Origin: Spirochaetia bacterium
Lineage (GTDB): Bacteria; Spirochaetota; Spirochaetia; CAKZLE01
DNA length: 64,000 bases
Assembly (NCBI GenBank): GCA_963677595.1
Contig: OY782041.1
Coordinates: forward strand, 3,200,001-3,264,000
Direction: 5' to 3'
Part shown: positions 6,810 to 55,147 of the stretch, in pieces
Position numbering within the stretch: the first letter of the stretch is position 1
How the letters are laid out: every line of letters begins with the position of its first letter
Notes under the pieces: model-generated
What the model was told of the DNA's origin: nothing
The model's input: only the letters and a program-made list of their open reading frames with translations
The model's database searches: none
Translations under genes and position numbers: made by a program

Positions 6810-9800
6810 GTAGGAAGTCTGTACGAACGAAGAAGATAGCCTTGGTTCTCACCCTCATCGTGTTCACCCTGTTCACATTCCTGGCCGGCTGCGACCTGGG
6901 TCTTGGCAATGACCAGGAGACCGGGGCCTTAAGTATCGGGCTTGCCAGCCCGAGGTCGTTCGATTCCGGCCTGGATACCGAGATAACCCATTATGCTATC
7001 ACCCTGACCCATACGGCTTCAGGGACAGTGATAGCTCCTGACCCATTCCAGAAAGGGGATCCCATCTACTTCCCTGACCTGATCATCGGGGAGTGGACCA
7101 TTGCTGTGGATGCCCTCAATGCAGCCGGGACGATCGTGGCGAACGGCAGTGCCGTGACGACAGTGGCACCGAAGAGCGTGAGCAATGTGGATATCTACCT
7201 ATCCTGGCTCGATGGTTCAGGTACCCTTGACCTTACGATGAGCTGGACAGAAGGTGCCTTCGTCGGTGATATGTTCCCAACAGCCTACCTGGTACCGCTG
7301 GATGGCAGCCCGCAGTTCGATCTGACATTGACTCCAGGTGCCTCCAGTGCTACCTGGAACCAGACTCTCGATGTCGGCCTGTACAAGCTCTTCGTAAACC
7401 TGCAGGACTCCGGGGAATACTCCAATGGACGGGTCACGATCATTAACATCATGAGCGGGGCAACAACCACGGCAGCCTTCGAGTTCGTTGGGTACAGCGG
7501 TGATTCGGGTGTGACGATCATAGACCCGGAAGATCCGCTCTTCGATATGGAATTAACGGCCACCAACACCATGGTACCGATCAACCAGGAGGTCACCATC
7601 ACCGCAAGTGTGGAAGATGCTGATTACTACGAATGGTACAATGGAACGACACAGCTCGAGGACTCATCTTCATACAGTGTCGTGCTGACTACACAAACTC
7701 CTCAGGTTGTGAATATATCGTGTATAGCCTACAAGGATTCATCCGTGGGACAGGCTGAGATTGAGATCACCTTCGGGGAATACGACCCTGAGACCTCGAT
7801 GGACAAGTACCTCTCTGCAAAGGCTATCCTTGACCAGGCGATGATGAATCCACAGGAGACACTGATCCTCGACCAGGTCTACAGCCTGCTCAACAGTGCG
7901 GTAGCCCTGAACCCGGATAACTCAGATGCCGTACTGGCACTGTCGATCCTCGACCTCTGCGGCTTCCTCATTGATGATGACATCGAGGTCGTGATGCAGG
8001 ATATGCTGGGTCTCGAACAATATCCTGAGACCTATGCTGACCTGTATGCGAATTTAGCCCAGTTTGGCTTGGGCATGGTCCCATACAATGTGAACACAAC
8101 AGGATTCAATAATATCCTGTATGATTACAGTTCGGAGGATAGATTTTATGTTATTCTGCCGTATCTGGCAGGCTGGAATCCCTCTACTGATGGATACAGT
8201 CCAGAGAGTTACCTGCTGCAGATGCTGGCCAACCTGACGGCTAGCGGCTATGACGCCGATGATGTGGTTGACGGCATTCTGGATGCCCTGGGCGACTCCC
8301 TAGACAGCGTGACTGGGAACCTTGCAGGGTTAAGTGATGGGACACGATTCGCGATCTCGCAGAATACAGTCCTTGGTGATATGCTGCCAGGCACAGCATA
8401 CTATACCAGCGCTGAGACCAAGGCTATAGCGGCAATTCTCTACCAGCTGCAGAGCTACGCATACTTGGCAAAGGCTGTTGATATGGGATTTGACTTCAAC
8501 AACCTGCTTGATTCCATGACCTATGATGTCTCCACCGGAGAGTACGGATTGACTGATGATTTCTCGCCGTTCGCTAACGGGTTCCTGGGGATCGACAATG
8601 AGGATGCAGCTGAGGCAGTGGCAGATGCGAAAGCCTCGTTCCTGAAATCACTCAGCTTGATGCATGAATCAATGACAGCGATCGCTGCCCGGGAAGCAGA
8701 GGGGACTGAAGATGCCCTGTTTATTTCTCCGGATAATCCATGGTACACAAACTCATGGGCTGATATCTCGGATTACCTGCTCTTTGCGGACCATATCGTA
8801 GGAGAGATCGAGAATTCAGTAATCAATGATGTACAGGCGATCATACCGTTGGATTGGATCGAGGATTGTACAGTGATCAATGACTATGTCGCTGCCGAGT
8901 TTGCCAATTGGCCGACCGAGGTCTCAATGATTCTGGAGGACTATGATGACTACTGGCATACATTGCCGGATGGCTGTGCATCATTAGGTCTTAACTTCAG
9001 CAGGCTCTTCGACCCAACCACGTCACTGCTCAGTATCCTGCTTGAACTCGATACCTCTGGTGATATCCAGCTCTATACCTTCGATGAGAGCGGCTACCCG
9101 GAAGCAGCAATTCCGGGTGTGGATGCATTCGACCCCTATGAATTCTATTACATGAGGATACCAGACGTCACGCTCAATGGTTTCCTGTCGCTTGAAGATC
9201 TCCCCATGTCCATAGAGGAGCTGAACCTGGTGATGGAGTATAATTCTCTGGATACCGAGGAGACTCCTGCGATCATGTTTGATAATGGAGATGGGACCAT
9301 CTCCTGGTATTGGTCGATGAATGCGGTGAGTAATGGCTTGGCTGCAAGTTACAGTATGTATGGCCCATACCAGTACCCATTTGCCTATCATATCCTGACT
9401 GATGCAGGTGTTTATACTGCAGATGTCCCGGTAAGGATGTCCTATGGACTTGTTGAGGATCTTGAGTCTTTCAACTACAAGGATGTCTACTTTGACAATA
9501 CGATGGACCTCACAAGTACCGGTTCCTTCTGGAGTACATTACCGGAGTTCGCACACTGGATAAATTATGCTCCAGCGGACCAGTACAATGATATGGCTAT
9601 GTATGAGATGACAGCTGAGAACCCGTTCCAGCTCCCAATGGACTCTGCATTCAGTATTGATCAATGGGATACTGTGTATCCGATGAGTAGTGCTATCTAC
9701 TTCGAGTATACTGCTGACAGGGATGGTGTAGTATCTGTCCGGTTTGATTCATCTAGTCCCCTTCAATTGTGGCTGAATGATGTAACAGTAACTGACCTTA

Positions 9801-10246
9801 CGAATATCAGCGTCAGCGCTGGCGAAACAATATTGGGTTGTTTCACATCAGCCGGCGACTATAATTGGGTAACTTGCATCTATGATGATAGTCTCGGTGA
9901 TATCAGCAGCATGGGAAGCGCCTATCCGCTGGCTGAGAATACGACAGTACAGGGGCGTATATATTATCAATTGCCAGATGACTTCTTCGAGATCGATCCT
10001 GCAACTGATAGAGTACGAATCCAACTGGATTCCCCTGATGTCCCTTCATCGATACAGATTCCTGGCTTGTATAGCCTGTATCACAATTTCTATGCATTGG
10101 ATCAGATTGGGAGTCAGTTGTATTACTCATCTCATGGTGATGCTATCGAGTTTGGTGTTACCGGTATAACCTATCTGGTTCTTGGAAGTTTTACAGGTCT
10201 TGACTATACCATCAGCTGGGAGGATATCGGGAGTCCTCTCCTCTAG
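6806..10246 (+). CDS. Large surface lipoprotein, paralog A (three-domain module plus helical/unknown passenger)
   Basis: GGAGGA RBS; 4-bp overlap with upstream stop; lipobox LAG-C; clear homology to 10332 and 13926/17121 genes. Confidence 0.85.
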   Translation: MSRKSVRTKKIALVLTLIVFTLFTFLAGCDLGLGNDQETGALSIGLASPRSFDSGLDTEITHYAITLTHTASGTVIAPDPFQKGDPIYFPDLIIGEWTIAVDALNAAGTIVANGSAVTTVAPKSVSNVDIYLSWLDGSGTLDLTMSWTEGAFVGDMFPTAYLVPLDGSPQFDLTLTPGASSATWNQTLDVGLYKLFVNLQDSGEYSNGRVTIINIMSGATTTAAFEFVGYSGDSGVTIIDPEDPLFDMELTATNTMVPINQEVTITASVEDADYYEWYNGTTQLEDSSSYSVVLTTQTPQVVNISCIAYKDSSVGQAEIEITFGEYDPETSMDKYLSAKAILDQAMMNPQETLILDQVYSLLNSAVALNPDNSDAVLALSILDLCGFLIDDDIEVVMQDMLGLEQYPETYADLYANLAQFGLGMVPYNVNTTGFNNILYDYSSEDRFYVILPYLAGWNPSTDGYSPESYLLQMLANLTASGYDADDVVDGILDALGDSLDSVTGNLAGLSDGTRFAISQNTVLGDMLPGTAYYTSAETKAIAAILYQLQSYAYLAKAVDMGFDFNNLLDSMTYDVSTGEYGLTDDFSPFANGFLGIDNEDAAEAVADAKASFLKSLSLMHESMTAIAAREAEGTEDALFISPDNPWYTNSWADISDYLLFADHIVGEIENSVINDVQAIIPLDWIEDCTVINDYVAAEFANWPTEVSMILEDYDDYWHTLPDGCASLGLNFSRLFDPTTSLLSILLELDTSGDIQLYTFDESGYPEAAIPGVDAFDPYEFYYMRIPDVTLNGFLSLEDLPMSIEELNLVMEYNSLDTEETPAIMFDNGDGTISWYWSMNAVSNGLAASYSMYGPYQYPFAYHILTDAGVYTADVPVRMSYGLVEDLESFNYKDVYFDNTMDLTSTGSFWSTLPEFAHWINYAPADQYNDMAMYEMTAENPFQLPMDSAFSIDQWDTVYPMSSAIYFEYTADRDGVVSVRFDSSSPLQLWLNDVTVTDLTNISVSAGETILGCFTSAGDYNWVTCIYDDSLGDISSMGSAYPLAENTTVQGRIYYQLPDDFFEIDPATDRVRIQLDSPDVPSSIQIPGLYSLYHNFYALDQIGSQLYYSSHGDAIEFGVTGITYLVLGSFTGLDYTISWEDIGSPLL

Positions 10247-10266
10247 TTAGTCTCGTTATCTCGATT

Positions 10267-10292
10267 AAGCCGGGTACTCATGTACCCGGCTT
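10267..10292 (+). terminator. Stem-loop between paralogs A and B (terminator or mRNA-stabilising hairpin)
   Basis: AAGCCGGGTAC-tcat-GTACCCGGCTT perfect 11-bp stem; near-identical copy at 20279-20304. Confidence 0.65.
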
Positions 10293-10685
10293 TACCCGTT
10301 CAATATGTAAAAGAAAGTAAGGAAGTGAAGTATGAAGCGGTCAGTACTCATCGTTGTAAGTATCCTGGTATTGGTCCTAAGCATCGGTTGTGACCTTGGT
10401 CTTAACAACAACCAGGAGGAGACCGGGGCTTTGAGCATCGGGCTTGCAAGCCCGAGATCGGTCGATTCCGACCTGGATCGGGAGATCGCTTCATATGACA
10501 TCACCCTGACCCATACAGTGTCAGGTACAGTGGTAGCCCCTGACCCATTCCAGAAAGGGGATCCGATCTACTTCCCTGACTTGATTATCGGTGAGTGGTC
10601 TATTGATGTGAATGCCCTCAATGCTTCTGGGACGATCGTGGCGGATGGCAGTGCCAAGACGAACATCGTACCGAAGAGTGAGAGC
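10267..10685 (+). repeat. About 420-bp direct repeat, copy 1 (hairpin, leader and 5' end of paralog B)
   Basis: Near-identical by eye to 20279-20697, including the non-coding leader TTTACCCGTTCAATATG...GTAAGGAAGTGAAGTATG. Confidence 0.85.
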
Positions 10686-13600
10686 TCTGTTGATATCTAC
10701 CTCTCCTGGTTGGACGGTTCAGGTACCCTGGACCTGACGATGAGCTGGACCGAGGGAGCTTTCGTAGGTGCTATGACCGCGACAGCCTATGTGGTGCCGC
10801 TCGGCACTACAGAAGAGCAGCCGTTGGCTCTTAATGTTGGGGAAGGGAGTGCAGCCTGCAACCAGAGCCTGCCAACGGGACTGTACAAGCTGTTCGTGAC
10901 CCTTCAGGACTCTGGTGAATATTACAGCGGCCGGGTCGATGTCATAAACATCATGAAGGATGCGACGACCACGGCAGTCTATGAGTTCGAAGGGTTTACT
11001 GGTGAGGTAGGAGTCACGATCATCGACCCGGCTGATATGATCTTCCCGATGAGCTTATCAGCAGAGAGTACCAATATTCTGATAGGTCAGCCGGTCACCA
11101 TCACCGCTAGTATGGAGGATGCTGATTCCTATGAGTGGTATAACGGTGATGTACTGCTCACTGATTCAAGCGACTGCTGGATCACCTTGACCTCAGATAC
11201 TCCTAAAGTTGTCACGATATCCTGTATAGCAGTGAAGGGGGAGAGGGCCGCTTCTGCAGATGTCGAGATCACCTTCGGGCAGTTCGACCCTGCAGTCTCG
11301 ATGGAGAAGTACCTGGCAGCGAAGGCTATCCTGGACCAGGCGATGACGAATCCCCAGGAGACGCTGATCCTCGATGAAGTCTACAGCCTGCTCAACAGTG
11401 CTGTGGCACTTGACCCGGACAACTCAGATGCGGTACTTGCCCTGTCGATCCTGGACCTCTGCGGATTCCTCATCGATGATGACATCGAGGCTGTTATGCA
11501 GGATATGCTGGGGCTGGAGACTTATCCGGATACCTATGCTGACCTGTATGCGAACATTTTCCAGTTTGCGATGGATATATTGTTCCCTTCTGATGCACCT
11601 GTGAATATGACAGGGTTTGAAAATATCCTGTATGACTACAGTACGGAGGATAGATTTAATGCCTATCTGCCATATTTGGCTGGTTGGGATCCTGTAACAG
11701 ATGGATTCGGTCCAGATAGTTACTTTCTGCAGATGCTCGACAATCTGACAACCAGGGGCTACGATGCGGATGACGTGGTAGACGGCATCCTGGATGCCCT
11801 GGGAGACTCCCTGGACAAGGTGACTGGGAACCTTACAGGCTTGAGTGAGGGGACTCGGTTCGAGATCTCACAGGATACAGTTTTTGTATTATCTGTTTCA
11901 GTGCCTATTTATTACACCAGCGCAGAGACGAAAGCCATAGCGGCATTGCTCTACCAGCTGCAGAGCTACGCATACCTGGCTAAGGCCGTAGAGCTGGGAT
12001 TCGACTTCAACAGCCTGCTTGATTCACTTACCTTCGATATGTATGGGAACCCGATACTACCGAAAGATTATTCCCCGTTCGCTAACGGCTTCCTTGGTAT
12101 CGACAACGAAAATGCAGCTGAGGCAGTGGCAGATGCGAAAGCTTCGTTCCTGAAATCACTCAGCTTGATGCATGAATCAATGACAGCGATTGCTGCCCGG
12201 GAAGCAGAGGGGACTGAAGATGCCCTGTTTATTTCTCCGGATAATCCATGGTACACAAACTCATGGGCTGATATCTCGGATTACCTGCTCTTTGCGGACC
12301 ATATCGTAGGAGAGATCGAGAATTCAGTAATCAATGATGTACAGGCGATCATACCGTTGGATTGGATCGAGGATTGCACAGTGATCAATGACTATGTCGC
12401 TGCCGATTTTGCCAATTGGCCTACTGAAAGTACAGTCAGTAGTGATTTCTATGATCCGTACCGATTGGACATGAATGGTAATTTTGATGCTGATATAGCC
12501 TTGAACTTCAACAGGCTCTTCGATCCTGCGACTGCATTGTTCGACCTGCTGCTGGAGCTTGATGCTACCGGCGATGTGAGGCTTTACCACCTTGACAGTA
12601 TCGGGTACCCGATCCCGGAGGATGGCGGTTATGATGGGAGCAGGGCATACTACTGCCGTGTCCCGGATATCACGTTCAACGGCCTGATCCCCATCGAGAA
12701 CCTGCCGGCCACAGTCGAACAGTACAATGTGGGGATGGCTATGACCGTGGGTACCTTTGAAGAGAGTATGTTCACATTGCATGAATGGGGCGATGGTACC
12801 GTATCTCTCTATGTATCGATGAACTATCTTAGTTTCGCCATGATGAAGCAAAACTTCTACTATAACTACCAATACGGTAATGACAATGTACCTGTGCAGT
12901 ATCCCCTGGCGTATCATATCCTCACACCCGCAGGGGAGACGCATACGATCGATGTCTGGATGTCCTATGGGTTAGCCAGGGACCTTTCCAAGACTGAGTT
13001 CCAATACCTTTTCCGGGACAACACGATGACATTAGAAAGTGCCGGCACTTTCTGGTCCAGCATCCCTGAACTGTATGAATGGATGTCCCTAGATGCAGGG
13101 TCACAGTATGATGACATGAGCATGTATAAGATGTCGGCAGTGAACCCATTCGTACTGCCGCTCGACACCACATTCAGCATTCCATCTGATCACCAGCTGT
13201 ATCCAACCAGTGGGATGCTGTATCTTAGCTATCCCATTGAGGAGGCCGGTTATATCTCAATAGAAGCTGGTAGTGCAACTGCTACAACCATCTTTTTGAA
13301 TGGGTCCGAGATCGGGAATGGATCTGCCTATACCCAAGTCGTTGTCGGTGATGAGCTGGTCGTAGCTCACGATACATCGTATAGTAATTACTGCTACATA
13401 ACCTGCTGTAAGGATGACGCCCAAGGTTTGATCGATACATTTGAGACGGCACCGACACTTCAGGCTCCACCAGCTGGATCGTCTCCTGTCGCCCATGGAA
13501 GAACCGGCTGGGCCCTTCCCCCTGATCTGTACAAGCTGACAGCATATGGGAGTGCTCTTTCAATAACCATGGATCTGCCAAGTGATCCTGATCCCTCGAT

Positions 13601-45156: not shown

Positions 45157-45435
45157 ATGGCAGTAAAAGCAGATACCAGCATGACGATTCGCATGAATCG
45201 GGAGGTGAAGGAGATGGCTCAAAAGATATTCTCAGAGCTTGGCATCGATATGTCCACTGCAGTGAATGTTTTCCTCAGGCAGGTTATCTTCCATAACGGG
45301 TTCCCGTTTGAGGTGAGGCTGAAGACCCCGAACCCCGTGACACGGGCTGCGATGGAATCCGCTGAGAACGATGAGGATATATACGGTCCCTATGATCGTG
45401 TCTCGAGCTTGATGGATGAGCTGAACCAGAAATAG
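45157..45435 (+). CDS. RelB/DinJ-family antitoxin (no adjacent toxin)
   Basis: AAGGAG RBS; MTIRMN-x-EVKE-x-A...LGIDMSTAVNVFLRQ...GFPFEV...PN-x-x-T-x-x-AM. Confidence 0.85.
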   Translation: MAVKADTSMTIRMNREVKEMAQKIFSELGIDMSTAVNVFLRQVIFHNGFPFEVRLKTPNPVTRAAMESAENDEDIYGPYDRVSSLMDELNQK

Positions 45436-48105: not shown

Positions 48106-49071
48106 CTAGGGATTTATAAAGTAGAGTGGAATGGTGCACATCCTGTTGTTCAAGTAGCTCGCTATCGTCTCAAGGCTGTCCGTATGGGCAGCAAGGTCAT
48201 CATCTTCCAGGGCAGCTTCGGCATCATCGAAGTAGCCTTCGAGCGTCTCATCGGTGAATCCCGATACCCACGCAACCTTCTTCAGGTAGCCGAAGAGGTT
48301 GTTGGAGTCCAGTGCCCAGCCCCACCTCGCGATATCGAACTGCTTCGCCTCGAACTCCGTCTTGAAGGTCTCCCAGTCCCGGGTGGTGACAGTCACATCC
48401 GTGACCTTCTCGACGAGTTCCCACTGGCTCTCCATCTCCGCCCCCATCGGGGTGGTGGTATCAGTGCAGAGGAAGTCGAAGCTGAAATAATCATCGTTCT
48501 GGAGTATGGCATCCACCGGATTCCCTTCATAGATACCTTCCTGGTGATCAAGGCCGTCGCGCCCGTAGTAGGTCGGGGGGATGAGGACGATTGCGGAGGT
48601 CCCGTCAGTCGAGGTGTTTGAGATGAGGTTGCCTCGATTGATCGCGCTGGCGAGGGCGCTCCGCACGTTGGCATCCTGCAGTTCAGCCACATCGGAGTTT
48701 ACGTTGACCGCCGCACAGACGATACCCGCCGAGGGGTAGGCGATCTGGATGTCACTGTCTTCAGGAACGAAGAAATGCCTGTCATAGATGGTATCGACAA
48801 ACACGACATGGACGGTGTATTCCCCCTCGGGGATATCCTTGAACTTGATCTTACCGTTCGGTTCGGTGATGAAGAGGTTCCTGCCGTTGATGGCAGGAGT
48901 GATCTTCAGCAAAGTGCGAACCTCGCTCTCGAGGGTCAGCTCCTCAGGGTCAAGGAAGTCCGGGTAGGCTAGTATCGTGACTTCTTTGACAGTCCCGAAG
49001 AGGAAGCATGATGTGACGAGTATGGTCAGCAGTAATGGAATGATGAGGAAGAAGGTGATGCGTTTCCCCAT
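48106..49071 (-). CDS. Lipoprotein: prealbumin/carboxypeptidase-regulatory-like domain fused to partial family-5 solute-binding domain
   Basis: AAGGAGG RBS; lipobox VTS-C; T-x-x-NG-x-I-x-F-x-DIPEG-x-YTV; D-x-NVRSAL-x-x-AINR, FDIARWGW, IPLYF. Confidence 0.65.
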   Translation of the reverse strand: MGKRITFFLIIPLLLTILVTSCFLFGTVKEVTILAYPDFLDPEELTLESEVRTLLKITPAINGRNLFITEPNGKIKFKDIPEGEYTVHVVFVDTIYDRHFFVPEDSDIQIAYPSAGIVCAAVNVNSDVAELQDANVRSALASAINRGNLISNTSTDGTSAIVLIPPTYYGRDGLDHQEGIYEGNPVDAILQNDDYFSFDFLCTDTTTPMGAEMESQWELVEKVTDVTVTTRDWETFKTEFEAKQFDIARWGWALDSNNLFGYLKKVAWVSGFTDETLEGYFDDAEAALEDDDLAAHTDSLETIASYLNNRMCTIPLYFINP

Positions 49072-49341
49072 GGTCATCCTCCTTGTTTATAACGTGTCAG
49101 ATGACCGGGGCGGTGTAAGAGCAGGATTCACTGATGCACAGGTACCATCTGTTCATCCGGCTCTTCATAGTATAACTGACCTGGGGACTGCAGTACATGG
49201 AAGGGCCGGCAGATAAGGAAAATATCTAAGGAGGTGCTTATAAGAGGAGGTAAATACTCTGACACTGCTGGCAATCATGGGCGGGATTATCGCTATTGCT
49301 GCAGCAGCGGTTAAATAAGAAGGTCTGACTTATTCTTGAAC

Positions 49342-49401
49342 CTGGAAAAACGTGGGATAATCACGGAATACTCTAGAAAAACGTGATATCTCCACGTTTT
49401 T
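49342..49401 (+). promoter_or_regulatory. Repeat set upstream of AAA/DUF4143 gene 1
   Basis: CTGGAAAAACGTG (49342-49354) and CTAGAAAAACGTG (49373-49385), period 31; second copy forms palindrome AAAAACGTG-N7-CACGTTTTT. Confidence 0.7.
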
Positions 49402-49427
49402 ATGATACACTGTTCCCAGGAGATCCT

Positions 49428-50732
49428 ATGGAACGGTTGATAGAACGGCAGTTATCTGCCTGGAAGGAGCGTCCGGGGCGCAAGCCCCTGCTGGTAAGCG
49501 GTGTGCGTCAGGTCGGGAAGACCTGGAGCATCACGGACTTCGGGAAGAGGCACTTTGCAGATCTTCTCTATGTCAATCTCGATACGGAACCCGGTCTCTG
49601 TGATATTTTCAGGCGATCCAAAGACCCTGAGAAGATACTCTTTCATCTCTCAGCCCTGAAGGGCAGGTCCTATGATCCGAAGAGGACCCTCATCTTCTTC
49701 GATGAGATCCAGGAATGTAATGAGGCACTGAATTCCCTGAAGTACTTCTGTGAGGCTGATGAAGAGTATTACATCATAGGAGCAGGGTCGTATCTCGGGA
49801 TCACTCTCCCGAAGGGGTCCTCCTTCCCCGTAGGTACAGTCGAGATGCTCGAGATGAAGCCGATGACCTACAAGGAGTTCCTCCTTGCTGCAGGCCAGGG
49901 GATGCTGGTCGATTACATGGAATCCATCGAGACAGTCAGTCCCCTAGCGGAACCCCTGGCTGATACCTTGAGACGGTACCTGCAGGAGTACTACCTCGTC
50001 GGCGGGATGCCTGAGGCGGTCAAGGCCTGGATGGGTAGGAGGGACCTTACCCTGCTCGATTCCGTACAGGTCAATATCATAAACTCCTATTACCGGGATT
50101 TCTCGAAATACCCGCCGAATGACCAGATTCCCAGGATCTTACAGGTCTGGGACTCGATCGTAGCCCAGCTCTCCCGGGAGAACCGGAAGTTCAAGTACAG
50201 CGAGATACGGAAATCGGCTCGGGCCCGTGAGTACGAACAGGCGGTGAACTGGCTGACCGCCGGCCATTACCTGAGCAGGGTGAACCGTGTCTCCTCATGC
50301 CGGATACCACTCAAGGGGTACGAGGACCCGACCCATTTCAAGACCTATATGCCGGATACCGGGTTGTTGAGGAACAGGGCAGACTTCCCGGTCTCCTCGT
50401 TCCTGGAGATGAAAGAGCATGAGAGCATCCCGTTCAAGGGTGCCCTTGCAGAGAACTATGTACTGCAGGAGCTCAAAGCTGTCTATGGGAAGGAGATCTT
50501 CTACTGGACCGGTAAGAACCAGGAGATAGACTTCGTGCTTCAGGCCGGGGATGCACCCATCCCGATCGAAGTGAAAGCCGGGATGAACGTCTCATCCCGA
50601 AGCCTGACAAGAGTCCTGGAACCTATGGATCTCGGTATCAGGTTCTCGATGAGGAACCTGTCCAGGGAGGGAAAGATCCTGAACATACCCCTGCCGCTCG
50701 TCAGTGAGTTCCAGCGGCTGCTGAACTCTTAG
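49428..50732 (+). CDS. AAA_14 ATPase plus DUF4143 with C-terminal PD-(D/E)xK-like motif, copy 1
   Basis: GVRQVGKT, FFDEIQ, AGS-x-LG, SFPVG, VGGMPE, DTGLL, GALAENYV, EIDF...PIEVK. Confidence 0.88.
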   Translation: MERLIERQLSAWKERPGRKPLLVSGVRQVGKTWSITDFGKRHFADLLYVNLDTEPGLCDIFRRSKDPEKILFHLSALKGRSYDPKRTLIFFDEIQECNEALNSLKYFCEADEEYYIIGAGSYLGITLPKGSSFPVGTVEMLEMKPMTYKEFLLAAGQGMLVDYMESIETVSPLAEPLADTLRRYLQEYYLVGGMPEAVKAWMGRRDLTLLDSVQVNIINSYYRDFSKYPPNDQIPRILQVWDSIVAQLSRENRKFKYSEIRKSARAREYEQAVNWLTAGHYLSRVNRVSSCRIPLKGYEDPTHFKTYMPDTGLLRNRADFPVSSFLEMKEHESIPFKGALAENYVLQELKAVYGKEIFYWTGKNQEIDFVLQAGDAPIPIEVKAGMNVSSRSLTRVLEPMDLGIRFSMRNLSREGKILNIPLPLVSEFQRLLNS

Positions 50733-50738
50733 AACAAC

Positions 50739-50816
50739 TGTAAAAAGGTGCTGATATTGGTCTGAACATGGTGTAAAAAGGTGTTAATCTTCACTAAAAA
50801 ACATAGGAAAAAGGTG
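50739..50816 (+). promoter_or_regulatory. Repeat set upstream of AAA/DUF4143 gene 2
   Basis: AAAAAGGTG at 50742, 50775 and 50808, exact period 33; first two are TGTAAAAAGGTG. Confidence 0.75.
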
Positions 50817-50866
50817 CTATATAGTATATAATTCTTTTTGAAAGAACTATATAGAAGGTGTCGCGA

Positions 50867-52165
50867 ATGCTGAGAAGGAAGATAGAAAGAAGATTCGAGG
50901 AATGGAGCCGGGATCCAGACAAGAGGGCTCTCCTTGTCTGGGGAGCAAGACAGGTTGGGAAGACCACCTCGGTGAGGACCTTTGCTTCTCAAGCGTATGA
51001 GTGCTTCATCGAGATAAACTTCGAGGAGAAGCCAAGCCTGAAGGCTGTCTTCTCAGGGGATCTGGATGCAGACACCCTGTATGAGAAACTGAGTGCCGCA
51101 GGGCTCGGGGAGCTGAGACCCCACCATACCCTGCTGTTCCTTGATGAGATCCAGTCATGTCCTGAAGCGCGGACAGCATTGAAATTCCTCGTTGAAGATG
51201 GGCGCCTTGATGTTATCGCTTCAGGTTCATTGCTGGGACTCAATTACCGTGATGTCTCCTCCTATCCTGCGGGTTATGAGCAGAAAGTAGAGATGCATTC
51301 CCTCGACTTCGAGGAGTTCCTCTGGGCAAATGATATACCGGTTGAGACCATAACTGCCCTGTACGGGCACTTCCAGGCGGGGACAGCGGTTGACCCCTTC
51401 ATACATGAACGGATGATGGAACTCTTCAAACGGTACATGATAGTCGGAGGAATGCCAGCAGTGGTGGTTGAGTACCTGAAGATGAAGGATATCCAGAGAG
51501 TGATAGAGGTGCAGCAGATGATCCTCTCAAGCTACCGGGATGATATCTCAAAATATGCCGGCAGGGACAAAAATCGTGCAAAGGCAGTCTTTGACTCGAT
51601 CCCCATGCAGCTGATGGAGAAGAACAAGAAATTCAAGCTTGCAGCTGTCCAGCATGGTGCAAAGAACCGGACCTATGAGGATGCGGTCTTATGGCTATCT
51701 GACGCAGGTATAGCAGCATTCTGCTTCAATGTCTCAGAACTCAGGCTCCCCTTCGAGTTGAGTGAGAAACGGAATGCATATAAGTTCTTCCTCTGTGATA
51801 CAGGACTGCTGAGTGCCATGTCCCTGGGGAATGTCCAGGCTGCTATCCTTGCAGGGGAGCTTTCGATAAACGAAGGGGCAGTTACCGAGAATGCCGTTGC
51901 CGACCTCTTGAGAAAAAGAGGGAGATCACTCCATTATTATGACCGGAAAGGGAGACTTGAGATCGATTTCCTCATAGCTGCCAAGGACGGTCCTGTCCTG
52001 GTAGAGGTGAAGTCAGGGAAGGACTACAGGCGGCATGCATCTCTTTCCAATATCCTGAAGGATAGTGATCATGTCATCAGCCGTGCAGTCGTGCTCTGCA
52101 CCGGCAACATGGAATCAGTTGGGAAGGTAACCTACATGCCGCTGTACATGGTCATGTTCCTGTAG
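50867..52165 (+). CDS. AAA_14 ATPase plus DUF4143, copy 2
   Basis: GARQVGKT, FLDEIQ, SGSLLG, VGGMPA, DTGLL, ENAV, EIDF...VEVKSG. Confidence 0.88.
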   Translation: MLRRKIERRFEEWSRDPDKRALLVWGARQVGKTTSVRTFASQAYECFIEINFEEKPSLKAVFSGDLDADTLYEKLSAAGLGELRPHHTLLFLDEIQSCPEARTALKFLVEDGRLDVIASGSLLGLNYRDVSSYPAGYEQKVEMHSLDFEEFLWANDIPVETITALYGHFQAGTAVDPFIHERMMELFKRYMIVGGMPAVVVEYLKMKDIQRVIEVQQMILSSYRDDISKYAGRDKNRAKAVFDSIPMQLMEKNKKFKLAAVQHGAKNRTYEDAVLWLSDAGIAAFCFNVSELRLPFELSEKRNAYKFFLCDTGLLSAMSLGNVQAAILAGELSINEGAVTENAVADLLRKRGRSLHYYDRKGRLEIDFLIAAKDGPVLVEVKSGKDYRRHASLSNILKDSDHVISRAVVLCTGNMESVGKVTYMPLYMVMFL

Positions 52166-52187
52166 GTCCTTCAGTATTGAAGATCCC

Positions 52188-52264
52188 TTGTAAAAATGTG
52201 AATTATAACAAAAGTACAATGGTAAAAATGTAATTTCTTTCATTAATACGATTGTACTTATGTA
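52188..52264 (+). promoter_or_regulatory. Repeat set upstream of AAA/DUF4143 gene 3
   Basis: TTGTAAAAATGTG (52188), TGGTAAAAATGTA (52220) and degenerate TTGTACTTATGTA (52252), period 32. Confidence 0.65.
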
Positions 52265-52301
52265 TGCCCCGTGATACGCTACTAACAGGGAGGGGTATCA
52301 T

Positions 52302-53642
52302 ATGCGACGATTCAGGATGGATGACCTGTATGCATGGAAGCAGAAACACGATAAGCTGCCGCTCATTCTTCAGGGTGCAAGACAGGTCGGTAAGACCTGG
52401 CTTATGCAGGAGTTCGGGAGGCAGGCTTATGACCAGGTGGTCTATGTCAACTTCGAGAACAATGAGCGGATGCAGGCACTGTTCTCCAGGACCCTCGATA
52501 TCCCGACACTCATCATGGGAATTGAGGCGGAGTTCTCAGTCAGCCTGCAGCCTGAGACCGTCCTGATCATCTTCGATGAGATCCAGGAGGTCCCGAAAGC
52601 CATTACCTCGCTGAAGTATTTCAGTGAGTACCCCATCGCGTATGATATCATCTGTGCCGGCTCTCTTCTGGGGATCGGGATGGAAGAACGGATCTCGTTC
52701 CCTGTTGGCAAGGTCTCGTTCCTGCAGGTCGCTCCCATGAACTTCGAGGAGTTCCTCGAAGGGATCGGTGAGCAGAAGATGGTTGGAGTCCTTAGAGGCG
52801 ATAACCCGGTATTGCTCGAGACGTTCAGGGAGAAACTCATCCAACTGCTCAAGGTGTATCTCATCGTAGGGGGTATGCCCCGGGTCGTCTCCGAATACGC
52901 CGATTCCGGCTCCCTGGTCCAGGTCAGGGAACTGCAAGCGGACCTGCTGCGGAGTTTCGAACTCGACTTCTCGAAGCATGCCCCGAACGGGGAGATCCCG
53001 AGGATCTTCCAGATATGGAGGAGCATACCTGCCCAGTTGGCCAGGGAACAGAGAAAATTCCTCTATAGACTCATACAGGAGGGGGCACGGGCGAAAGCAT
53101 ACGAGAAGGGCTTAGTATGGCTGCAGCAGGCAGGGATCATCCGGAAGATCTCGAGGATAACAAAACCAGCGCTGCCGCTCTCAGCCTATGAGGACCCCAA
53201 AGCGTTCAAGCTCTTCTTCCTCGATGTAGGCTTGCTCGGTGCCATGAGCGGTCTGCCTGGGAAGGTCATCCTGGACTGGGATGCACTGTTCCAGGAGTTC
53301 AAGGGGGCCCTGACAGAACAGTATGTCATACAGGAACTGGGATCTACTGAGTTCCCGGCTCTCTGGTATTGGAGTGCCCAACGGGCTCCCGCGGAGGTTG
53401 ATGCACTCCTCGAGTATGAGGGCAGCATCATCCCCCTGGAGATCAAGGCAGGGGAGAACCTGAGATCGAAGAGCCTGAAGTCCTATTATGACCGCTATAC
53501 CCCGGCAGTCGCTGTACGAGCCTCCCTCTCTGATCTCCGCGATGAGGGGTGGATGTTCAATATACCCTTGTTTGCGGTCTCCCAGCTCGGGAGGCGCCTC
53601 GAGAAGTATATCCACCATCAGGAAAGATACGTCACTCCTTAG
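52302..53642 (+). CDS. AAA_14 ATPase plus DUF4143, copy 3
   Basis: GARQVGKT, IFDEIQ, AGSLLG, SFPVGKV, VGGMP, DVGLL, GALTEQYV, EVD...PLEIKAG. Confidence 0.88.
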   Translation: MRRFRMDDLYAWKQKHDKLPLILQGARQVGKTWLMQEFGRQAYDQVVYVNFENNERMQALFSRTLDIPTLIMGIEAEFSVSLQPETVLIIFDEIQEVPKAITSLKYFSEYPIAYDIICAGSLLGIGMEERISFPVGKVSFLQVAPMNFEEFLEGIGEQKMVGVLRGDNPVLLETFREKLIQLLKVYLIVGGMPRVVSEYADSGSLVQVRELQADLLRSFELDFSKHAPNGEIPRIFQIWRSIPAQLAREQRKFLYRLIQEGARAKAYEKGLVWLQQAGIIRKISRITKPALPLSAYEDPKAFKLFFLDVGLLGAMSGLPGKVILDWDALFQEFKGALTEQYVIQELGSTEFPALWYWSAQRAPAEVDALLEYEGSIIPLEIKAGENLRSKSLKSYYDRYTPAVAVRASLSDLRDEGWMFNIPLFAVSQLGRRLEKYIHHQERYVTP

Positions 53643-55147
53643 AGCGACTGCAGTTCAGCGAATAGCTCCCGGTTCTGCAGATAGGCCCGCTCGAAGATCC
53701 GCTGCAGCTTCCGGTATGCCTGGTGCTGGTCCATGACAGGGTGGATCACGGACGCCGTCGGGTTCATCCGCTCGATGATGCTGAAGTCGGGATAGAGCCC
53801 GCATCCCACGCCGCCGATGACGGCAGCCCCCATACTGGTGGACTCCTCGAGGTATCTCGGGACCTCAAGGGGAAGTCCCGTGACCGTCGACAGCAGTGTG
53901 ACGAGATTCCCCATCCTCGCCCCGCCTCCGGTGACCCTGCAGCGTTCGGTCTCCTGGTGATGTGAGAATATCTCGTAGGAGTAGTTGAGATTCATGGCGA
54001 TCCCCTCATGGATCGCATGGGCGATCTCATCGGCCGTGGTGTTCAGTCCCAGGCCTAAGAGGACTCCCTTCGCCTCGGTGTCCCACCAGGGGGTACGTTC
54101 CCCCATGAGGTAGGGGAGGAAGAGCAGCCCGCCGCTCCCCGGCGGGATATCCTCCGTCTTCTCCTCTAGCTCTGAGTAGATCGTGTCGTTCCCGGCTGGG
54201 GCGAACCGCTTCAGCAGGGAATCAACGTACCACTTGAAGCTGCTCCCTGCCGTCTGCATGGTCCCGCAGGGGTGGTAGAGCCCCGGTACCGGGTGGGCGA
54301 AGGTGAAGACCTTCATGGAAGGATCTTGCAGCGGTTCGGTGGTGGTCATCGAGGTCCAGGCTGAGGACCCGATATTGGTGTAGGTGATCCCCGGGGCGAT
54401 CGAGCCTGCCCCGATGGTGGCACAGCCGCCGTCCCCGGCACCGGCAACGACCGGGGTGCCCTCGAGCAGTCCGGTGAGCTTCGCAGCCTCTCCCGTCACA
54501 TACCCCACGATGTCAGTCGACTGGTGGATATCGGGCATCAGGGATGCATCGATGCCGGCAGCTGCCAAGATTTCCTCTGACCACCGGTCATGCAGCAGGT
54601 CCATGGCATTGGTCCCCGAGGCATCATTGCGCTCGGTGATGAAGGCACCGGTAAGCTTGCAGATCATGTAGTCCTTGGCGTTAAGCATCTTATGGGTCCT
54701 GGAGAAGATCTCCGGCTCATGGTCCCTGATCCACATTAGCTTCTCGATGGAGTAGGCGGAACTCGGACGGTGACCGGTGAGCCGGTAGATATGCTCGAAC
54801 CCCAATACATCGATGAGCTGGTTGGTCTCCTCTTCTGCACGCTGGTCGCAGTAGAGGAGGTGGGGACGAAGATGGTTCCCCTCCCGGTCGACGCAGAGAC
54901 AGCCCTGCATCTGGCCGCTGAAGGAGACCGCCGCGATATCGCGGGGGTCGATCTGGGTGCATATCTCACGCGTACAGGAGCAGACTGCCTCCCCCCAGGC
55001 ATCAGGGTCCTGTTCAGCCCAGTTGGAGTTGAAGAAGTGTGTATCGTAGGCATGCGTGAAAGAGCAGACGAGTTCCCCGGACTCATTGAAGGCGGTGACC
55101 TTGTTCCCCGAGGTGCCGAGGTCATGGGCGATGATATATGAAGGCAT
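53639..55147 (-). CDS. FGGY-family carbohydrate kinase (xylulokinase-like)
   Basis: HDLGTSGNK, WAEQDP, SGQMQG, DQRA, DASGT, GAGDG, LFLPYLMGER-x-P-x-W, TGGGA. Confidence 0.88.
   Translation of the reverse strand: MPSYIIAHDLGTSGNKVTAFNESGELVCSFTHAYDTHFFNSNWAEQDPDAWGEAVCSCTREICTQIDPRDIAAVSFSGQMQGCLCVDREGNHLRPHLLYCDQRAEEETNQLIDVLGFEHIYRLTGHRPSSAYSIEKLMWIRDHEPEIFSRTHKMLNAKDYMICKLTGAFITERNDASGTNAMDLLHDRWSEEILAAAGIDASLMPDIHQSTDIVGYVTGEAAKLTGLLEGTPVVAGAGDGGCATIGAGSIAPGITYTNIGSSAWTSMTTTEPLQDPSMKVFTFAHPVPGLYHPCGTMQTAGSSFKWYVDSLLKRFAPAGNDTIYSELEEKTEDIPPGSGGLLFLPYLMGERTPWWDTEAKGVLLGLGLNTTADEIAHAIHEGIAMNLNYSYEIFSHHQETERCRVTGGGARMGNLVTLLSTVTGLPLEVPRYLEESTSMGAAVIGGVGCGLYPDFSIIERMNPTASVIHPVMDQHQAYRKLQRIFERAYLQNRELFAELQSL

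Follow-up and report, generated by a model that had tools for sequence, protein, structure and literature searches.

Clade-spaced, gene-specific repeat arrays upstream of PDC-S01 ATPase–nuclease genes as candidate cognate operators

Introduction

To understand why three neighbouring genes for ATPase–nuclease proteins each lie behind an array of short, helically phased repeats, we examined a 64,000-nt stretch of a Spirochaetia bacterium genome (assembly GCA_963677595.1, contig OY782041.1, positions 3,200,001 to 3,264,000 of the forward strand), hereafter the window, and used the host genome of 4,325,376 bp for genome-wide counts. The genes belong to PDC-S01, a common candidate phage defence gene (PMC12988326; PMC13356809; Payne et al., bioRxiv 10.1101/2024.01.29.577857) which, according to the available text of PMC12988326, ranks fourth in frequency among the defence systems and candidates of prokaryotes; most PDCs still await validation (PMC12988326), and DUF4143, one of the two domains of these proteins, is listed as being of unknown function in the accessible part of PMC3424549. 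Upstream of PDC-S01 genes we find arrays whose spacing follows the clade of the protein and whose sequence is specific to the gene. On sequence evidence, each array is probably a cognate operator that lies over the gene's own promoter and would be bound by its own PDC-S01 protein in autorepression. The literature searched, whose coverage stopped short of supplements including that of the PADLOC preprint, gave no description of arrays upstream of PDC-S01 genes; what is new here is the presence of such clade-spaced, gene-specific arrays, tested over 53 paralogues of one genome.

Three ATPase–nuclease genes, each behind a phased array

The three genes lie head to tail on the forward strand, each preceded by a spacer that carries an array of boxes about three helical turns apart:

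49346..49401, + strand: array 1, a pair of AAAAACGTG boxes (49346 and 49377; period 31); likely the operator of gene 1
49428..50732, + strand: gene 1, PDC-S01, 434 aa; AAA+ domain (residues 18–152), predicted winged helix (~231–307) and PD-(D/E)xK nuclease
50211..50261, + strand: predicted recognition helix of gene 1, residues 262–278, KSARAREYEQAVNWLTA; its type covaries with box sequence in the clade
50742..50816, + strand: array 2, three AAAAAGGTG boxes at 50742, 50775 and 50808, period 33
50867..52165, + strand: gene 2, PDC-S01, 432 aa; helix HGAKNRTYED; separate sub-branch; motifs intact
52192..52264, + strand: array 3, AAAAATGTG / AAAAATGTA at 52192 and 52224 (final G/A variable) and a decayed ACTTATGTA at 52256, period 32
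52302..53642, + strand: gene 3, PDC-S01, 446 aa; helix EGARAKAYEK; motifs intact

Each AAAAACGTG box of array 1 forms the left half of a GTG-N7-CAC dyad. The second of these dyads is perfect (AAAAACGTG-N7-CACGTTTTT, 49377–49401), and the first box is likewise followed by CACG 7 nt further on, while the middle AAAAAGGTG box of array 2 carries GTG-N8-CAC. An earlier note on this DNA, made from its letters alone, had described three tandem AAA_14/DUF4143 genes, each behind its own array, with periods of 31, 33 and 32 and one palindromic N7 copy; Pfam matches and box positions agree with this description throughout. It had also placed the start of arrays 2 and 3 about 7–25 bp past the preceding stop codon, and this closeness holds with slightly different distances, array 2 beginning 9 bp past the stop of gene 1 and array 3 26 bp past that of gene 2. 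The longest exact matches at a spacing of 30–35 bp measure 10, 12 and 10 nt in the three spacers and were equalled in 0 of 2000 dinucleotide shuffles per spacer. Moreover, pairs of AAAAA.GT[GA] 28–37 bp apart occur four times on both strands of the whole genome, all of them within the three window spacers from which this search pattern was itself derived. The phased repeats upstream of the three window genes are hence confirmed as real, beyond chance.

All three proteins, each encoded by a stand-alone gene, match AAA_14 (PF13173) followed by DUF4143 (PF13635) above the Pfam cut-off, as the earlier note had assigned them; the PADLOC PDC-S01 profiles, which also match all three (E 1e-153 to 1e-163), supply the family identity which it missed, together with the occurrence of arrays throughout the family. 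The Walker A, Walker B and E...D...ExK residues are intact in every case. Since the proteins share only 32–38% pairwise identity and fall on different branches of one clade (clade A below), the three genes have accumulated at this locus, and a recent tandem duplication was rejected. A structure model of gene 1 (pLDDT 91) contains an AAA+ core, a helix–helix–helix–hairpin region at ~231–307, which is predicted to be a winged helix, and a PD-(D/E)xK domain; in fold it comes closest to the archaeal ATPases 2qen and 2fna, followed by Orc1/Cdc6 (2v1u, 2qby; Orc1–DNA) and STAND proteins. Searches of the three window proteins against the helix-turn-helix (HTH) families of Pfam gave no match, and neither a sequence search against solved structures nor NCBIfam, at its cut-off, returned a match for a window protein. 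A homodimer prediction for gene 1 scored 0.00 and carries no weight either way. At the thresholds used, gene 3 matches 9 of 50,697 phage records and 31 of 72,556 plasmid records.

Arrays across the gene family

The host genome contains 53 DUF4143 genes, and we examined the 150 bp upstream of each. A significant repeat, direct or inverted (shuffle p<0.05; 60 shuffles and two tests per gene), was present in 44 of these 53 paralogues. Direct repeats scoring at least 13 were found upstream of 25/53 paralogues as compared with 26/644 AT-matched control promoters, several of the latter being the same arrays viewed from a divergent neighbour gene. When the paralogues were divided into clades using a quick tree, the best period was 31–34 in 13/13 genes of clade A, to which the window genes belong, 23 in 7/7 genes of clade B and 39–41 in 10/12 genes of clade C (three of these ten scoring <11); clade D has no consistent period and mostly a single palindrome. 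Clade A was also sampled in other genomes. Of 114 clade A loci, selected solely on protein similarity, free of redundancy and including the host's own 13 (15 further loci were skipped because they had no usable open reading frame (ORF) or a short upstream region, 6 fell outside clade A and 51 were removed at ≥90% identity), 74 carry a repeat scoring at least 11, and the period is 31–34 in 67 of these. Box sequence, by contrast with spacing, differs from gene to gene among the 53 paralogues, and for all 21 genes that have an exact phased 9-mer pair, the genome contains no second occurrence of the pair.

Arrays were also seen beside other genes. A solo Fic-like gene has an upstream array with a 40-bp period and a second, AlbA/HATPase-like gene has one with a 20-bp period (G000:C1:1068675-1069745 and 1658468-1659892). 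Private operators may be general for one-gene toxin–regulator fusions. A cluster at G000:C1:1098177-1107332 (L187) contains a Fic gene, a PDC-S01 gene with seven 23-bp repeats, AbiEi–AbiEii, a second PDC-S01 gene that has its own array again after the stop codon, and a Phd/YefM-type toxin–antitoxin pair.

Box sequence and recognition helix

Box sequence was compared with the predicted recognition helix across clade A. Phased YGTGA boxes are present in 24/34 loci whose proteins have AREYE at residues 266–270 and in 1/80 other clade A loci; proteins with a KRSAEL helix are paired with ATGAC/GGAC boxes in 4/6 loci, and the group with a GKTF helix is paired with TTGAAAAGTC boxes. When 8-residue windows were scanned over 93 loci, with a correction for overall identity, one of the two top peaks lay at ~261–272 (0.19 at 263–270) and the other, equally high, at 411–420. 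A distant ARAREY pair, L092 and L094, has the YGTGA box, and L123, a member of the clade with a changed helix, is without it; these cases favour a real link between helix and box. The spacing between GTG and CAC is 7–8 bp in 28/43 dyads of the ARAREY group, as expected of sites read by winged-helix dimers such as CRP. By contrast, the suggestion in the earlier note that the central base of the box is a one-letter code for each gene was rejected. Relatives of gene 1 at 62–63% identity keep the dyad and the 31–32 spacing and have A, C or T as the central base, which thus varies among close relatives and is no code.

An alternative is that the boxes are sites of a host regulator, for example a CRP/FNR-family protein, and 7/35 ARAREY loci contain an exact TGTGA-N6-TCACA, the CRP consensus. 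Yet paralogues within one genome differ in their boxes, each pair being unique to its own promoter, and the type of box follows the PDC-S01 protein across phyla rather than the host. A host regulator is therefore extremely improbable.

A further alternative is a restriction-like nuclease, ATP-dependent and methylase-free, that would recognise the boxes in foreign DNA, the promoter copies serving only to titrate the protein. The nuclease motif is intact in 108 of the 114 clade A proteins, and diversification of sequence from gene to gene would fit an arms race. Against this, the half-sites are not depleted in the host (for example, AAAACGTG is seen 36 times against 29.5 expected and AAAAGGTG 44 times against 56.8), no methylase gene adjoins these genes and a triple phased site would presumably be very rare in phage DNA, all of which makes a restriction target quite improbable.

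Candidate promoters and autoregulation

Inspection of the spacers by eye identified the following promoter-like elements:

49403..49411, + strand: extended −10-like TGATACACT, directly behind the last dyad of array 1
50817..50832, + strand: −10-like TATAGT/TATAAT, directly behind the third box of array 2
52252..52280, + strand: promoter-like TTGTAC-N17-TACGCT, its −10 preceded by TG and its −35 overlapped by the third box of array 3

On this by-eye reading, promoter-like elements adjoin the last box or overlap with it in all three spacers and, because TGATACACT lies directly behind the last dyad of array 1, this dyad would cover the −35 region. In 26/53 paralogues (a count made without a control) TANNNT is located 11–13 nt before the ATG, which suggests that transcripts are leaderless and begin downstream of the array.

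The position of these elements bears on a different possibility raised by the earlier note, that the spacers encode a small repeat–spacer RNA, either CRISPR-like or resembling a type III antitoxin, which would act on the nuclease as a guide or an inhibitor. For spacers 1 and 3, predicted folding is stronger than in their shuffles (z −3.7 and −2.1), and arrays 2 and 3 could be reached by read-through from the upstream gene. However, spacer 2 does not share this property (z +0.5), folding follows from the dyads in any case, no Rfam match was obtained up to E 1, and the repeats are 9–12 bp long, helically phased and located upstream of, or over, the likely −10. Where TANNNT is a −10 close to the ATG, its position suggests that the array would stay untranscribed. 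An RNA array is accordingly very improbable.

We therefore return to the reading in which each array is the operator of its own gene. In the mechanism we propose, a pair of winged helices would read one dyad of the GTG-N7/8-CAC type, whose right half is often degenerate, and ATPase-driven contacts would bridge two or three dyads, which a spacing of three helical turns places on the same face of the DNA. With the last site overlapping the promoter, the nuclease would be kept scarce and tethered. If spacing is fixed by the geometry of the oligomer it should follow the clade, and if box sequence drifts with the recognition helix, dozens of self-regulating paralogues could coexist in one genome. 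Array and gene would form a self-contained, separately acquired unit, three of which would have piled up at one hotspot. The likely purpose, defence through release or activation of the nuclease upon invasion, is the least supported step. The sites are confined to the gene's own upstream region and covary with the protein, a covariation that is confounded by kinship; together with the arrays across the family and the clade-linked spacing, this makes cognate, co-diverging binding sites appear the best supported of the options that the earlier note had listed. Clade C, in which Q-x-[AS] mostly replaces ExK, keeps its arrays nonetheless.

Several observations weigh against this reading. Nine of the 53 paralogues have no significant upstream repeat, 40 of the 114 clade A loci have no repeat scoring at least 11, and a scan for the sigma-70 consensus detected none (0/3) of the promoters identified by eye. 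The covariation of motif and HTH that had been put forward as a check is present in the counts given above, but residues 409–420 score as high as the recognition helix in the window scan and most AREYE proteins form one clade, so kinship may be the source of the link between helix and box. Gene 1 itself belongs to the ARAREY proteins, yet its boxes are CGTGG/CGTGA and form no phased YGTGA pair, and L146, L078 and L067 are further exceptions to the pairing. Lastly, the available text of PMC12988326 and of Payne et al. (10.1101/2024.01.29.577857) reports no anti-phage activity for PDC-S01.

Expression data for a member of the wider family come from Thermus thermophilus, in which TT_P0211 (AAA_14, DUF4143, HTH) is up 6.6-fold in the presence of a plasmid and Argonaute (PMC4406477); in the accessible part of that report the authors draw no link to autoregulation. 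A Thermus plasmid gene of the AAA_14–DUF4143 type has two palindromes directly before its start (L206:26075-26135, − strand), and its protein matches HTH_IclR and HTH_5 above the cut-off. By position and domains this gene is probably TT_P0211, whose induction fits an inducible gene.

Mobility of array and gene

Near-identical genes in unlike flanks have in common a stretch that begins near the first box and ends near the stop codon (L012/L013/L014, L020/L021, and L073 compared with L086/L091 and L163 with L160–166), though many other pairs have long flanks in common as well. The shared stretch supports the view that array and gene travel as one unit, as the earlier note had supposed of repeat set plus gene.

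That the array is also the end of a mobile unit, another option in that note, is only partly supported. The corresponding alternative to an operator is a selfish element of one gene with the array as its end or loading site, where the protein would assemble, cut nearby and move the unit or make the locus capture further cassettes, repression being secondary. Some features of the relatives agree with this. The gene's own array recurs 1–6 bp after the stop codon in 2/53 paralogues (g1099941m and g1754627m), compared with 0/250 control ORFs with a flanking repeat, and also in L038 and L053. Duplications of host sequence, 44–127 bp long, flank cassettes in L013, L072, L105, L116, L132 and L194 (three clear cases in 100 non-redundant loci, the remainder being from redundant or selected loci), a 62% relative of gene 1 is nested in another PDC-S01 gene, and in three groups, unrelated inserts of ~1 kb are found immediately at the stop codon of PDC-S01 genes. 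Six head-to-tail junctions occur among the 53 genes against ~1 expected from gene density by our own estimate, the four outside the window joining mostly different clades, and the only clade A paralogues with phased AAAA.GT[GA] (3/13) are the three tandem genes of the window.

Other features speak against a selfish element. The window contains neither a long direct duplication nor a terminal repeat flanking the unit, the highest identity between any two of the 53 paralogues is 64%, and copies of the array at the far end are rare (among 96 loci, clear in L038 only and weak in L088). Restriction–modification (RM) genes, which are moved passively, are also known to have long target duplications (PMC2853133, in the text available). 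The shared core was defined from the three window genes and every box resembles those of its own branch, so the case for targeted stacking is no more than suggestive. The comparison with empty sites in relatives, proposed in the earlier note, yielded none: four contig-only sequencing runs gave no joint removing the cassette for the window or for the g1754627m locus, a viral scan for L116 returned just two filled contigs, and no empty site for L013 was found among 61 genomes. In 31 relatives only single genes matched, none of the relatives being close enough for synteny; in G005 the kinase gene that borders the window unit has no PDC-S01 gene within 1.4 kb, and its other flank is not common to the window. 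Given the lack of a duplication in the window, the limit of 64% identity and the lack of an empty site, the unit is mobile as cargo, with self-mobilisation unproven, and a selfish element is rather unlikely as the explanation of the arrays. An active transposon or insertion sequence was rejected on the grounds of paralogue identity and the absence of terminal repeats in the window.

A more far-reaching version of the operator reading, which we regard as unlikely, would make the DNA array itself both the antitoxin and the loading platform of a one-gene, methylase-free system. An Orc1-like ATPase–nuclease would dock on the array through a rewritable helix-to-box code and be freed or activated by foreign DNA, and cutting in cis would trap further cassettes, preferentially those with related boxes, thereby building the triplet.

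Several PDC-S01 loci have unusual surroundings. The gene at G000:C1:1753248-1754780 (L186:5248-6780) has beside it a second, 52-bp copy of its two-box array (1 mismatch), and a 26-bp direct repeat lies further out; its contig in run X1 has a depth of 88 against ~50 for its neighbours, a weak hint of tandem amplification. At L188:4400-7870 (G033), another PDC-S01 gene encloses the 62% relative of gene 1 together with a Fic gene, and a 127-bp duplication is present. In a prophage (L116 / L196:2501-4103), two PDC-S01 cassettes of different clades are situated between terminase and portal-like genes, the first having a copy of the 3′ end of the terminase gene on either side. The ~1-kb inserts, which differ from one another, lie at or next to the PDC-S01 stop codon in L119–L122, L034/L080 and L141/L143/L149 and are absent from near-identical loci; we take them to encode a chloramphenicol acetyltransferase-like protein, a ToxN-like protein and others. 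At window position 52141, one contig of run X3 has the end of gene 2 and array 3 behind an unlike upstream sequence, a loose end that is absent from G000 and perhaps represents a strain with a different gene before cassette 3.

Neighbouring genes

The unit is bordered by two genes that lie outside it:

48106..49077, − strand: left neighbour, solute-binding-like lipoprotein
53639..55147, − strand: right neighbour, FGGY sugar kinase

The three genes, all on the + strand, are thus located between a solute-binding-like gene and a sugar kinase gene, and the stop codon of gene 3 overlaps the convergent kinase gene by 4 bp. Elsewhere in the window, a RelB/DinJ-type antitoxin gene is present at 45157–45435 with no adjoining toxin ORF of at least 80 aa listed. 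The contig ends G000:C1 ~7970-11808 and 4321466-4325303 hold the same genes (an assembly overlap), and a tandem repeat with a 13-bp unit lies upstream of the rarA-like gene.

Comparison with known systems

A cognate DNA site for each paralogue would mean that ligand, footprint and oligomer spacing are known in advance, so that binding, structure and activation become directly testable, and 53 paralogues with four spacing classes in one genome provide an orthogonal panel for reading a protein–DNA code. Clones for phage assays must also be designed with the array in mind, as a gene under repression could be mistaken for an inactive one.

Phased cognate repeats beside the gene are a feature of archaeal Orc1/Cdc6 with its ORB repeats and of plasmid Rep proteins with their iterons. 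The window genes resemble these in their modelled AAA+ and winged-helix fold, in the phased repeats beside the gene and in having paralogues with their own sites. They are unlike them in possessing a C-terminal nuclease and in occurring as dozens of scattered chromosomal copies; the nuclease fusion and the 53 copies would argue against a role as a replication origin. Residues 1–319 of the gene 1 model align with PAB2304 (2qen; Z 16.2, rmsd 4.6, 267 aligned) and SSO1545 (2fna; Z 14.0, rmsd 4.3, 264 aligned), but identity is 15–17% and the match leaves out the nuclease domain.

The insertion of RM genes with long target duplications, as described in the available text of PMC2853133, likewise concerns recombinase-free units with long, variable direct repeats, as in several relatives of PDC-S01, whereas the three genes here have neither such a duplication nor a methylase beside them. 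AbiEi is a defence-linked DNA-binding protein that represses its own promoter by cooperative binding to repeated inverted sites (PMC7319586, in the part available), and we infer the same here. In the window, however, regulator and predicted toxin are one polypeptide with no second gene, and the sites would be phased by an AAA+ oligomer. Membership of the AbiE type IV toxin–antitoxin systems was rejected, as there are no separate genes for an AbiEi antitoxin and an AbiEii toxin at the window locus. The closest counterpart is PADLOC PDC-S01 (COG1373) itself, a single-gene ATPase with a PD-(D/E)xK domain, an architecture common to the window proteins. For this system, the available text of PMC12988326 and of Payne et al. 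describes no operator or DNA target; the clade-spaced, gene-specific arrays are what is added here.

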